From the NCBI RefSeq assembly GCF_054482525.1, contig NZ_CM137006.1: a DNA stretch of 64,000 nucleotides, one strand, 5' to 3'. Below are positions 7,996-10,581 of the stretch, piece after piece. Every line of letters starts with the position of its first letter. The stretch's first letter is position 1. A program made the position numbers and the translations under genes. The notes below the pieces were generated by a model. That model saw only the letters and a program-made list of their open reading frames with translations, was not told the DNA's origin and made no database searches.

Positions 7996-8349
7996 TTAAC
8001 TACAAATGTTCTTACTGTCTTCGGAACAATTTTGTCGAGCCAAGTTGCGGACAATCACCTGAACCTTTTCCTGTTCGCATCGCCAGGCCTGCTCAATAAT
8101 TTTCGCGGCCCATGATGGAATATGCGGTGATAAGCGGTAATGAACCCACTTACCCTGCTTGCGATCCAGCAATAGCCCACTTTCACGCAGCAATGCCAGG
8201 TGGCGGGATATCTTGGGCTGCGACTGATCGAGGGCAGTGCAGAGATCGCAGACGCATAATTCTCCCAGCTCGCTGAGCAGTAAAACGATGCCCAGACGGG
8301 TTTCATCAGCAAGAATTTTGAACAGTTGGATGGGTAACAGAAATGACAT
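7996..8349 (-). CDS. arsR: Arsenical resistance operon repressor ArsR
   Basis: 117 aa with the metalloid-binding ELCVCDLC motif in the HTH region. Confidence 0.9.
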   Translation of the reverse strand: MSFLLPIQLFKILADETRLGIVLLLSELGELCVCDLCTALDQSQPKISRHLALLRESGLLLDRKQGKWVHYRLSPHIPSWAAKIIEQAWRCEQEKVQVIVRNLARQNCSEDSKNICS

Positions 8350-8500
8350 ATTGCGCTCCTGATTGTTGCAGGTAGTGTCTCTCTTCGAAGCGGATAAGTC
8401 AAAAATATATATGGTTTAACGAATGTGTATGTGCAGAGGAAGGTAATAGGTGTGAATTTTGAGTTGGCTATTTATTTGAAAGGAGGTCTGAATCAGGACG

Positions 8501-8586
8501 TAAAAAAACCGACTTTGCGTCGGTTTTTTACTTTCCAGCCCTGAGTTGGTGGCTCTGGCCGGAGTGAGAATGCCCACATCTAACGG
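8501..8586 (-). ncRNA. agrB: Antisense sRNA of the dinQ locus, copy proximal to arsR (agrB-like)
   Basis: About 90 bp repeat unit; 33 nt (GCTCTGGCCGGAGTGAGAATGCCCACATCTAAC) identical to a segment of the dinQ leader at 8986-9018; ends in an intrinsic terminator (stem CCGAC/GTCGG flanked by A7/T6); agrA/agrB assignment from recalled K-12 order. Confidence 0.5.
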
Positions 8587-8734
8587 TTCAATACTATTAG
8601 CCAGTGGCTAACATTGCAAGCGTTAGCGATTTCTTCAGCTGGCGAAGGGACAGTTTGCTATACATGTTGGTGAAAGAGGATTTATATACTTTCATCGGGT
8701 CGCTGCCGTACCAGGCCTTGTCCGAATCCGGACG

Positions 8735-8820
8735 TAAAAAAACCGACTTCGCGTCGGTTTTTTACTTTGCAGCCCAGAGTTGGTGGCTCTGGCTGGAGTG
8801 AGAATGCCATCATCTAACGC
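8735..8820 (-). ncRNA. agrA: Antisense sRNA of the dinQ locus, second copy (agrA-like)
   Basis: Second copy 234 bp from the first, with several mismatches to dinQ in the complementary segment; same terminator structure. Confidence 0.5.
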
Positions 8821-8882
8821 ATCAATGCTAATACCATACTGAAACTATTGCAAGGACATGCTGGTTTTATAACCTGTATGTA

Positions 8883-8898
8883 CTGTATGATTATCCAG
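8883..8898 (+). promoter_or_regulatory. LexA box (SOS operator) upstream of dinQ
   Basis: taCTGTATGATTATCCAGtt fits the CTG-N10-CAG LexA consensus, about 190 bp upstream of the dinQ ORF. Confidence 0.6.
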
Positions 8899-9091
8899 TT
8901 AGTTCTGAGGCATTTTCACTCTGGTAATGCGCATAAACGCTTTCAAAGTCCTGGTCAGAAGTACGGGTGGTGCCGTTAACTGATGCTCTGGCCGGAGTGA
9001 GAATGCCCACATCTAACAATGGGGCATGCGCCGTGACAGGCAGTGGATGAGTAAGCGGATGCATTCTCACTCCATCGCATGGAGAAAACGG

Positions 9092-9175
9092 GTGATTGAT
9101 AAAGCAATCATCGTTCTTGGGGCGTTAATTGCGCTGCTGGAACTGATCCGCTTTCTGCTTCAGCTTCTGAACTGA
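9092..9175 (+). CDS. dinQ: SOS-induced toxic membrane peptide DinQ (27 aa, GTG start)
   Basis: GTG ATT GAT AAA... encodes VIDKAIIVLGALIALLELIRFLLQLLN, a single hydrophobic helix; GGAG RBS 7 nt upstream; a 6-codon upstream mini-ORF (ATG at 9079) overlaps the start. Confidence 0.7.
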   Translation: MIDKAIIVLGALIALLELIRFLLQLLN

Positions 9176-9191
9176 TAGCGGAAACGTAGCT

Positions 9192-9222
9192 AAGGGCAAA
9201 GAGCACACCACTCTTTGCCCTT
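9192..9222. terminator. Hairpin between the convergent dinQ and gor genes
   Basis: AAGGGCAAAGAG-cacacca-CTCTTTGCCCTT, 12 bp perfect stem, just 3' of both genes. Confidence 0.5.
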
Positions 9223-9228
9223 TAACAT

Positions 9229-10581
9229 TTAACGCATGGTCACGAACTCTTCTGCCGCCGTCGGGTGAATGGCGACGGTATTGTCGAAGTCTTTTTTGGT
9301 CGCCCCCATCTTCAGCGCCACCGCGAAGCCCTGCAACATTTCATCCATACCAAAACCAATGCCGTGAATTCCGACAATCTTCTCTTCCGGTCCAACGCAT
9401 ACCAGTTTCATGCGGCACGGCTGGCGGTGAGTGGTGACGGCGGTATACATCGCGGTGAAAGAGGATTTATACACTTTCACCTGATCGTCGCCGTACTGCT
9501 CGCGCGCCTGCGGTTCCGTTAAACCAACAGTCCCAATCGGCGGATGGCTGAAGACCACGGTCGGAATGTTGCTGTAATCGAGATGCTCATCCGGCTTGTT
9601 ATTAAACAGGCGTTCAGAGAGACGGCGACCCGCTGCAACTGCTACCGGTGTCAGTTCCACTGCACCCGTGTTATCGCCCACCGCGTAAATACCTTCAACG
9701 TTGGTGTTTTGATATTTATCGACGACGATATAGCCTTTTTCGTTGGTTTTAACGCCAGCGGCTTCCAGGTTGATGTTGTCATTGGCAGGCTCGCGACCAA
9801 TCGCCCAAATCAGGCAATCCACCGTTTCACTACGCCCATCTTCCAGCTCCAGCGTCAGGCTGCCATCGGCATTTTTCACCACCGCTTTCGGGATGGCATT
9901 GGTATGCAACTGTGGGCCTTCGGCGTTCATCACTTCGACCAGCGTTTCAGAGATCATCGGGTCGAAGCTGCGCAGCGGCGCGTGTTTACGTACAAACAGA
10001 TGCGTTTTCGCGCCGAGGCCGTTAATCACGCCCGCCAGTTCAACGGCGATGTAACCCGCGCCAACAACCGCTACGCGCTCTGGCAGCGCCGGAAGGGCGA
10101 AGAAGCCATCAGAATCAATACCGTATTCCACGCCCGGAATATCCGGGTGGCTCGGACGACCGCCGGTGGCGATCAGAATATGATCGGCCGTGATGGTTTC
10201 GCCGTTTACCTTCAGCGTTTTGGCATCAACGAAGCGGGCAAAGCCTTTGATTACATCAACGTTATTTTTACCGAGCACGTTTTCATAGGAAGTATGAATA
10301 CGGTCGATATAGGCGGTACGGCTGGCGATCAACGTTTCCCAGTTGAATTTATTGATAGTGGTATCGAAACCATAATCCGGACCGTACATGTGGATCGCTT
10401 CACGGATTTGCGCCGCGTGCCACATCACTTTCTTCGGTACGCAACCGACGTTCACGCAGGTGCCGCCCAGTTCTTTGGCTTCAATCAGCGCACATTTCTG
10501 GCCGTACATAGCCGCGCGGTTGATGGAGGCGATACCGCCGCTGCCGCCGCCGATGGCGATGTAATCATAGTGTTTAGTCAT
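9229..10581 (-). CDS. gor: Glutathione reductase
   Basis: 450 aa; FAD site GGGSGGIAS and redox-active disulfide [13 protein letters not shown]. Confidence 0.95.

Follow-up and report, generated by a model that had tools for sequence, protein, structure and literature searches.

The arsR-gor intergenic region of Escherichia coli was found, by sequence comparison, at positions 8350-9228 of the window, which is the whole 64,000-nucleotide stretch of contig NZ_CM137006.1 (NCBI RefSeq assembly GCF_054482525.1) that was analyzed. The region is 100% identical to that of strain PCN033. Alignment with the K-12 arsR-gor region, the check proposed in an earlier note made from the DNA letters, gave 92.5% identity and the same gene order as in the MG1655 record, namely arsR - agrB - agrA - dinQ - gor, with dinQ convergent with gor. 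The earlier note had placed a dinQ-agrA-agrB locus at 8480-9230; the whole of the locus lies inside this span, and each of the elements described there was found where it had been located. The features are as follows.

8502-8583, minus strand: agrB small antisense RNA, arsR-proximal (Rfam RF02891), with a terminator hairpin at 8503-8529 and a U run
8591-8619, minus strand: putative agrB promoter, -35 TTGCAA (8614-8619), 17-nt spacer, -10 TAGTAT (8591-8596)
8659-8711, minus strand: relic of gor coding sequence in the agrB-agrA spacer, 83% identical to gor 9444-9496
8736-8817, minus strand: agrA small RNA, the dinQ-proximal paralogue (Rfam RF02891), with its own terminator hairpin at 8737-8763
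8825-8853, minus strand: putative agrA promoter, -35 TTGCAA (8848-8853), 17-nt spacer, -10 TAGCAT (8825-8830)
8873-8892, unstranded: weak overlapping LexA box CCTGTATGTACTGTATGATT, over the dinQ promoter
8881-8900, unstranded: strong LexA box TACTGTATGATTATCCAGTT, a 20-mer identical to the K-12 dinQ operator
8886-8891, plus strand: likely dinQ -10 element TATGAT, placed from the position of +1
8898-9226, plus strand: primary dinQ transcript of about 329 nt, +1 being 8898 by K-12 numbering
From 8941, plus strand: processed, active dinQ form (+44 by K-12 numbering)
8913-8925, 8991-9003, 9064-9075, and 9079-9084, plus strand: switch elements 1, 2, 3, and 4 (the last with the Shine-Dalgarno sequence), from published positions
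8985-9017, plus strand: AgrB target site in the dinQ leader (+88 to +120), a member of the direct-repeat family
9081-9084, plus strand: Shine-Dalgarno GGAG, read from the sequence
9092-9175, plus strand: dinQ coding sequence, GTG start, 27 codons and a stop, a single hydrophobic helix
9192-9222, unstranded: 12-bp hairpin (inverted repeat), putative shared terminator of the convergent dinQ and gor genes

The dinQ ORF encodes the product (V/M)IDKAIIVLGALIALLELIRFLLQLLN, a peptide with a GRAVY of 1.79 in which 74% of the residues are hydrophobic. Its score against the NCBIfam equivalog model NF041472 (toxin_DinQ) was determined to be 54 bits (cut-off 30; E = 1.4e-14), and that against the DinQ_rel/DqlB sister model was 14.9 bits, under the cut-off of 35. 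The toxin is therefore assigned to dinQ proper. In PCN033, RefSeq labels exactly this ORF as 'damage-inducible type I toxin DinQ' (WP_001295215.1), and the same accession is carried by a strain with an intergenic region identical to that of MG1655. The proposal that the 27-codon GTG ORF is DinQ is borne out by the model score and by this identity. Of 71 loci compared across several Escherichia species, 70 encode the unchanged peptide within flanking DNA that diverges. It is the same as that of K-12, where the toxicity of DinQ has been demonstrated (PMC3567139).

The two small RNA genes were recognized on the strand opposite dinQ by the Rfam AgrB covariance model (RF02891), at 8500-8583 with 106.2 bits and at 8734-8817 with 98.3 bits (gathering score 40), and both matches are full-length, covering model positions 1-84 of 84. 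MG1655 has annotated 82-nt ncRNAs, agrB and agrA, at the homologous positions; the identities to these are 75/82 and 76/82, respectively. The predicted fold of agrB has an energy of -33.6 kcal/mol (z = -4.75). The DNA repeats that hold the two genes (8486-8599 and 8720-8833) are 114 nt each and 89% identical, and their starts are 234 nt apart. A spacer of 120 nt lies between them, so that they should be called direct and not, in the strict sense, tandem (head-to-tail) repeats. The two tandem repeats of roughly 90 bp in the earlier note thus agree with the RNA units of 82-84 nt but not with the DNA repeats. The intrinsic terminator suggested for each unit is present in both, as a minus-strand hairpin CCGAC-GCRAA-GUCGG (R is A in agrB and G in agrA) whose stem is lengthened by A-U pairs and which has a U run behind it.

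The -10 element of the putative agrB promoter is 7 nt from the start at 8583, and the promoter region is conserved with K-12, for which consensus-like -10 and -35 elements and a mapped start have been reported (PMC3567139). The agrA promoter has the same geometry and is identical in sequence in K-12. A scan for consensus promoters and terminators flagged none of those at this locus. By manual count the agr promoters match at 8 of 12 positions, which is below the scan threshold of 9; the agr terminators were missed, in our opinion, because the A/U extension of the stem probably absorbs the T run. We attribute the failure of the scan at this locus to its thresholds and not to a lack of signals. 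Rfam matches in the region to Spy779816 and ncr952 reached 20-24 bits, compared with gathering scores of 67 and 100, and were treated as chance; those to Spy779816 sit over both agr terminator hairpins.

A LexA box had been proposed about 190 bp upstream of the toxin ORF. The segment CTGTATGATTATCCAG was located at 8883-8898, with 194 nt between it and the GTG codon downstream. The bare CTG-N10-CAG motif occurs at 33 sites in the 64-kb window and was rejected as evidence for a LexA site; because it is uninformative alone, it is the identity of the full 20-mer to the K-12 operator that counts. The published heterology index (HI) values for K-12 are 4.83 for the strong dinQ box and 13.82 for the weak one (PMC3567139). 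The low-HI operator overlaps the predicted dinQ promoter, as expected for a gene of the SOS (LexA) regulon, and induction of dinQ by UV has been seen on Northern blots in K-12 (PMC3567139). At the other end of the transcript, the stem of the 9192-9222 hairpin is kept by a compensatory A-T to T-A change relative to K-12, where the corresponding hairpin was called the putative dinQ terminator (PMC3567139).

The 33-nt segment that the earlier note had found to be shared with the dinQ leader is the 33-mer GCTCTGGCCGGAGTGAGAATGCCCACATCTAAC, which is present at 8552-8584 in agrB and at 8985-9017 in the leader (33/33). The corresponding 33-mer of the agrA copy (8786-8818) matches at 30 of 33 positions, that is, with 3 mismatches. 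The first 32-33 nt at the 5' end of agrB are fully complementary to the dinQ leader, and the duplexes with dinQ are predicted at -72 kcal/mol for AgrB and -57 kcal/mol for AgrA. A hydrophobic ORF of 27 amino acids and an RNA with perfect antisense complementarity to the toxin mRNA over 33 nt are both present, as in a type I toxin-antitoxin pair. The binding of AgrB to dinQ G88-A119 has been demonstrated in K-12 (PMC5066626).

The dinQ leader extends for 194 nt ahead of the ORF. With +1 at 8898, each of the published positions U16, G88, G94, U167, U178, A182, and G187 carries the base reported for it, and the four elements described by Kristiansen et al. in 2016 are capable of the mutually exclusive pairings 1:2, 2:3, and 3:4. 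The minimum free energy (MFE) fold of the +1 RNA contains the 1:2 duplex and the Shine-Dalgarno hairpin (3:4), with z = -5.8, and an inverted repeat makes a perfect 13-bp 2:3 duplex available. Forcing the 2:3 pairing was calculated to cost 10 kcal/mol in the +1 RNA and only 2.4 kcal/mol in the +44 RNA. For the allele in the window, the MFE structure predicted for the +44 RNA still pairs the Shine-Dalgarno sequence, so that thermodynamic prediction alone misses the open state. The modeled energy gap between the states shifts in the expected direction, which is consistent with the switch but not decisive. We also considered whether the first 33 nt of the dinQ mRNA are a diverged, inverted agr 5' end. 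The idea was rejected as not significant, since without gaps the two agree at 16/33 positions, a score equaled or exceeded by at least 397 other 33-mers of the window. Any likeness between the two 5' ends is a consequence of the pairing of both with element 2.

Compared with K-12, the locus is alike in its arsR-gor site, gene order, strands, and small RNA promoter geometry; the DinQ peptide, the LexA box, the Shine-Dalgarno hairpin, and elements 3 and 4 are identical, and in both strains the RNA that fits the target best is the arsR-proximal one. Six bases in the core of the AgrB-target duplex of the window differ from those of K-12, and the changes coincide in agrB and the dinQ leader (GAATGCCCAC versus GAGAGTTCTT). 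The 1:2 and 2:3 duplexes are predicted at -30.9 and -24.7 kcal/mol in the window and are weaker in K-12, at -24.2 and -19.3 kcal/mol, respectively.

The identification of the three genes as dinQ, agrA, and agrB is supported, at the level of sequence, by independent database tests and by the direct comparison with K-12. We regard it as nearly certain that the region contains dinQ-agrAB, a chromosomal type I toxin-antitoxin locus of Escherichia coli, with every part intact in this strain. The reading of the locus as dinQ-agrA-agrB put forward in the earlier note is one on which Rfam, NCBIfam, RefSeq, and the MG1655 annotation all agree. The locus is already known, having been characterized experimentally in 2013 (Weel-Sneve et al., PMC3567139) and 2016 (Kristiansen et al., PMC5066626); it is present in Rfam and NCBIfam, its coding gene is annotated by RefSeq, and the copy described here is ordinary and intact. 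The confirmation is therefore of little weight in itself and mainly shows that a type I toxin-antitoxin locus can be recognized from raw sequence.

The functional steps at this locus are carried over from K-12, across an intergenic identity of only 92.5%. By this analogy, LexA would hold dinQ off until DNA is damaged. The full-length mRNA would be inert in translation, with element 1 paired to element 2 and the Shine-Dalgarno sequence locked in the 3:4 hairpin. Loss of the first 43 nt would allow element 2 to pair with element 3 and would free the Shine-Dalgarno sequence. AgrB bound to element 2 of the +44 form would re-close the Shine-Dalgarno hairpin and create a substrate for RNase III. Any DinQ that escapes this control would enter the inner membrane, where it would be expected to cause depolarization and lower ATP and to affect nucleoid compaction and recombination.

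Repression might be wired differently in this strain. In K-12, deletion of agrB leads to UV sensitivity, and it is AgrB, not AgrA, that blocks translation and directs cleavage by RNase III (PMC3567139, PMC5066626). That the effective repressor is the better matched, arsR-proximal copy, as had been suggested, is in agreement with these experiments, although it is less certain for this allele. AgrB has no mismatch to its target here (33/33) and one in K-12, and by manual count AgrA has 3 mismatches here compared with 7 in K-12, which makes the inactivity of AgrA less certain. With only 3 of its 33 positions mismatched to the target, AgrA might repress dinQ in this strain as AgrB does, the two being redundant copies. 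The predicted AgrA:dinQ duplex of -57 kcal/mol compares with -47 kcal/mol in K-12 and lies within the range of -55 to -62 kcal/mol of the best available pairs in strains where even the closest copy carries 1-3 mismatches; deletion of agrA in K-12 already gives 3-fold more full-length dinQ mRNA (PMC3567139). Against redundancy, the mismatches of AgrA cluster at positions 9, 24, and 25, the last two inside the strain-variable segment, and AgrA of K-12 left the SHAPE reactivity and the translation of the +44 RNA unchanged (PMC5066626). We consider redundancy unlikely, although not strongly so, and the claim of only one effective repressor in this strain is not secure.

It is far less probable that only a silent or decaying remnant is left in this strain, one that no longer works as a toxin-antitoxin pair. 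Such loci do exist: 814 of 5,426 complete genomes (about 15%), including Nissle 1917, carry a recombinant from which the small RNA genes are missing, together with the LexA box and both promoters, and in which the dinQ ORF is still annotated; the locus is therefore dispensable. However, the promoters, terminators, LexA box, switch elements, Shine-Dalgarno sequence, and ORF are all intact here, and the match between target and antitoxin is perfect. The least credible reading, in which the repeats have a structural intergenic role or serve arsR or gor as terminators or attenuators, and the short ORF is due to chance, might draw on the blank consensus scan and on the abundance of short ORFs in the region, but it is already contradicted by the full-length fit of both copies to the AgrB covariance model, the constancy of the peptide within diverged DNA, the covariation of RNA and target, and the Northern blots, primer extension, and toxicity data from K-12, which indicate real genes (PMC3567139).

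The dinQ-agrAB locus has several counterparts. The dqlA/dqlB (DinQ-like) family of enterobacterial plasmids and chromosomes was defined previously (PMC5066626) and has a homologous 5' UTR and peptide; the gene in the window, in contrast, is chromosomal and located at arsR-gor. With the dinQ mRNA from the window as the query, 2,312 plasmid records were found at 60-80% identity, many of them labeled 'DinQ-like type I toxin DqlB'. The zor-orz system of E. coli O157 also has a divergent, non-overlapping antisense RNA that acts on the toxin 5' UTR, and tandem paralogous copies, and a 2024 study found part of a zor 5' UTR to be similar to the 5' UTR of a plasmid dinQ (PMC11264685). It differs in toxin family and in locus. 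The tisB-istR-1 system has a small hydrophobic inner-membrane toxin under LexA control, a divergent, non-overlapping antisense RNA directed at the 5' leader, and an inert primary mRNA that is activated by 5' processing, with RNase III cutting the duplex. There is a single antitoxin RNA for tisB, compared with the two paralogous copies at dinQ, and the chromosomal site is another one. We know of no sequence relationship between the two systems. The likeness of dinQ-agrAB to tisB-istR-1 of E. coli has been remarked on previously (PMC3567139).

The AgrB RNA and its dinQ target were found to co-vary between strains. We tentatively propose, with somewhat less than even confidence, that gene conversion among the 33-nt modules of agrB, agrA, and the dinQ leader has produced matched target-RNA 'specificity alleles', and that which paralogue is cognate depends on the lineage. 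The cognate antitoxin would be the arsR-proximal copy for K-12 and the strain described here, and the dinQ-proximal copy, 'agrA', for O157:H7 and many others. Such alleles may differ only in the 8-nt hypervariable core, and recombination between the repeats may also give the one-copy and promoterless variants. If the cognate paralogue does depend on the lineage, the K-12 rule that AgrB is the antitoxin and AgrA is inert is not general. Alleles in which RNA and target have changed together already exist in nature and amount to an in vivo test, by covariation, of the AgrB-dinQ duplex, and strains in which the other paralogue is better matched would show whether the identity of the antitoxin is set by sequence or by position. 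Metagenome contigs with one badly matching agr copy, such as one with a K-12-type target and only an agrA-type RNA, were not counted as genotypes, as they may be collapsed assemblies of the repeats spaced by 234 nt.

These side observations are potentially useful to those who work on type I systems, and a last one concerns the origin of the module. To the left of agrB (8350-8499), the local alignment score with gor was 15, with a maximum of 22 for the shuffles, and no similarity beyond the shuffles was found there. The relic in the agrB-agrA spacer gave a score of 61, compared with 19 ± 2.3 (maximum 28) for the shuffles, and its translation resembles Gor. The presence of gor relics beside agr copies suggests that a duplication or an insertion at the 3' end of gor gave rise to the module.

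The interval between arsR and gor was found to be 879 bp in length and 100% identical to that of E. coli PCN033, and a match to it is present in 5,422 of the 5,426 complete E. coli genomes. The alignment with the K-12 arsR-gor region proposed in the earlier note gave 92.5% identity to K-12-type genomes. The assignment of 8480-9230 to a dinQ-agrA-agrB locus was borne out by the RefSeq annotation of DinQ, the NCBIfam and Rfam AgrB models, and the positions of the MG1655 ncRNAs. Because every needed sequence element is intact and the AgrB-target duplex is perfect, we accept this interpretation with high confidence. The feature is the dinQ-agrAB system itself rather than a relative, and is already known and ordinary. 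Its components are as follows.

7996-8349, minus strand: arsR, flanking gene
8583 to 8502, minus strand: agrB, from MG1655 homology
8817 to 8736, minus strand: agrA, from MG1655 homology
8883-8898: LexA box CTGTATGATTATCCAG, 194 nt before the dinQ GTG
9092-9175, plus strand: dinQ ORF, GTG start, 27 codons
9229-10581, minus strand: gor, flanking gene

The sole gene annotated in this interval in the PCN033 RefSeq record is 'damage-inducible type I toxin DinQ' (WP_001295215.1), which lies exactly on 9092-9175; the same accession is found in a strain that has exactly the MG1655 intergenic sequence. The peptide is strongly hydrophobic (GRAVY 1.79) and reaches 54 bits with the NCBIfam toxin_DinQ model NF041472 (cut-off 30), and it falls below the cut-off of the sister DqlB model. 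The accession and the NF041472 score agree with the identification of the 27-codon GTG ORF as DinQ. In the stem of the putative dinQ/gor terminator hairpin (9192-9222), a compensatory exchange at 9198 and 9216 has replaced the A-T pair of K-12 by T-A; a loop base close by differs as well. In some genomes, RefSeq PGAP has placed minus-strand 'hypothetical protein' ORFs over agrA or opposite the leader of dinQ (648-863, 939-1112, and 708-881 in compared loci L003, L007, and L008, respectively), and these are probably spurious. No agrA or agrB ncRNA was annotated by PGAP in the non-K-12 records fetched.

The LexA box that had been placed about 190 bp upstream of dinQ was found there. The bare CTG-N10-CAG motif occurs at 33 sites in the 64-kb window, and the 20-mer at this site, TACTGTATGATTATCCAGTT, is identical to the K-12 dinQ operator, for which a heterology index of 4.83 and a weaker overlapping box have been reported (PMC3567139). 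This weak second, LexA-like box is located at 8873-8892 (CCTGTATGTACTGTATGATT); it reads CTGTAT vs CTGCAT in K-12, and its left half-site is thereby nearer to consensus in this strain.

A repeat search identified two direct repeats of 114 nt each (8486-8599 and 8720-8833; 89% identity, starts 234 nt apart) and a 33-nt family with three members, one each in agrB (8552-8584), agrA (8786-8818), and the dinQ leader (8985-9017). The agrB and leader copies are exactly the same, and the agrA copy differs by three mismatches, as the earlier note had described for the arsR-proximal and distal units. Rfam RF02891 (AgrB) matched the minus strand over the whole 84-position model with 106 and 98 bits (gathering score 40). 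The agrB and agrA boundaries were assigned because 82-nt ncRNAs are annotated at the homologous places in the MG1655 record. The predicted fold of each RNA has a hairpin at its end with a run of U residues behind it, in keeping with the intrinsic terminator proposed for each repeat, and upstream of each is TTGCAA-17 nt-TAG(T/C)AT, ending 7 nt from the start. A simple consensus promoter and terminator scan of the window flagged neither for the agr genes, a miss that we attribute to its thresholds.

In K-12, the dinQ transcripts are UV-inducible, and of five RNA species only the processed +44 form is translated, from the GTG, to give a toxic 27-residue inner-membrane peptide; deletion of agrB confers dinQ-dependent UV sensitivity (PMC3567139). 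The Shine-Dalgarno hairpin of the +44 RNA is closed by AgrB, which stops translation and directs RNase III cleavage, whereas AgrA does none of this (PMC5066626). By analogy with K-12, DNA damage would lift LexA, processing to +44 would open translation, and AgrB would close it again and recruit RNase III. As judged from the sequence, all elements required by these steps are intact in the window. If 8898 is taken as +1, the published U16, G88-A119 (the AgrB site), G94, U167-U178, and A182-G187 (which includes the Shine-Dalgarno) all fall on the stated bases, and the GTG is at +195; C28 and G106 are substituted. The predicted fold of the +1 RNA (z = -5.8) reproduces the published lock, with leader elements 1 and 2 paired and the Shine-Dalgarno inside hairpin 3:4. 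With the core allele of the window, the locking 1:2 duplex (8909-8925/8991-9008; -30.9 vs -24.2 kcal/mol) and the activating 2:3 duplex (8994-9006/9061-9073; a perfect 13 bp, -24.7 vs -19.3 kcal/mol) are both predicted to exceed their K-12 counterparts in length and stability. The 2:3 duplex can be forced on the +1 RNA at a cost of 10 kcal/mol and on the +44 RNA at only 2.4. The folding is consistent with the switch but is not proof of it, since the minimum-free-energy fold of the +44 RNA keeps the Shine-Dalgarno paired.

The proposed type I toxin-antitoxin-like arrangement agrees with the 33/33 antisense match of AgrB, the hydrophobic DinQ, and the K-12 experiments. The further claim that one RNA is the effective repressor is the one point that we would soften. 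The AgrB-target duplex is perfect in the window (predicted -72 kcal/mol; one mismatch in K-12), but AgrA is also near its target, with 3 mismatches vs 7 in K-12, and its predicted duplex of -57 kcal/mol is on a par with the best pair that several other strains can form. T1TAdb lists AgrA in some strains only and selects whichever pairing is more stable.

In mechanism the locus most resembles tisB-istR-1; the closest homologues are the dql genes. A search with the dinQ mRNA returned 2,312 plasmid records (60-80% identity) in Escherichia, Klebsiella, Salmonella, Enterobacter, and others (database matches H27-H49). Most of the plasmids (1,983) are conjugative, in line with PMC5066626; many records are annotated dqlB and a few dinQ. 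When one genome per species was scanned for the exact pattern, the chromosomal leader was found in Escherichia only (E. coli, E. albertii, E. whittamii, and Escherichia sp.), plus contigs, apparently of E. coli origin, in MAGs that bear other labels. The pattern also occurs once in a Bacteroidetes MAG, which has no dinQ.

The agrB and dinQ-leader copies lie 433 bp from each other and depart from K-12 at the same six core bases (GAATGCCCAC vs GAGAGTTCTT; K-12 loci L002 and L020), which can be explained by gene conversion or compensatory evolution.

8570-8579: duplex core in the window, within 8552-8584
9003-9012: duplex core in the window, within 8985-9017

Co-variation was followed in 69 loci including the window (L003-L016, L018-L019, and L021-L074), drawn from complete genomes, species representatives, and metagenome contigs. 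The dinQ target varies almost exclusively at positions 19-26 of the 33-mer, and the core is usually common to one agr copy. The better match was at the agrB position in 16 of the 35 two-copy loci and at the agrA position in 18, with 1 tied; the 18 include the complete genomes of O157:H7 E32511, WP5-W18-ESBL-11, and M00057. The K-12 rule that AgrB is the antitoxin may not be valid by position in all lineages. We give somewhat less than an even chance to a reading of allele-matched co-variation in which the copy that acts as cognate antitoxin changes between lineages. A perfect 33/33 AgrB match was found in 3 of the 69 loci, the window among them. At position 9 (8560 in agrB and 8993 in dinQ of the window), dinQ C vs agr T is nearly fixed in the other sampled loci, giving a C.A mismatch in the duplex. 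Several metagenome contigs (within L021-L074) have a K-12-type target and, as sole RNA, a poorly matching agrA-type, which resembles a delta-agrB mutant in K-12. Such single-copy genotypes were not counted as real, given possible assembly collapse of the two repeats. A limited literature search returned no description of the matched differences from K-12 or of the co-variation, copy-number, or gor-relic results, which we do not claim to be unpublished.

Of the 5,426 complete genomes, 3,823 contain the spacer between the two copies and are taken as two-copy. The junction of a 433-bp deletion occurs in 814 at no less than 99%, including Nissle 1917 (H63); in E. coli A33 it is at 1560-1790 of L011. 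This deletion joins the agrB 33-mer to that of the dinQ leader. Lost with it are agrA, the LexA box, the promoters of both RNAs and of dinQ, and ~87 nt from the 5' end of the leader. The dinQ ORF is still annotated in these genomes; A33 is also without arsR and arsB. By subtraction, the remaining ~770 would have one agr copy. In three such examples, E. coli 2011C-4251 (L008), M114 (L009), and RIVM_C040348 (L010), about one repeat period (231-234 bp) is lost together with a gor relic that otherwise lies in the agrB-agrA spacer. This relic (8659-8711, minus strand) is 83% identical to gor 9444-9496, codons about 360-385 (score 61 vs a shuffle maximum of 28), with protein-level similarity over about 8620-8735, and is more decayed in K-12. 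E. albertii (L012) has one agr copy, and just past its terminator, on the side away from gor, is a 30-nt gor stop-codon relic identical at 26/30 positions to the real gor 3' end (score 40 vs a shuffle maximum of 25). This suggests that the agr-dinQ module lies between duplicated stretches of the gor 3' end, via insertion or local duplication.
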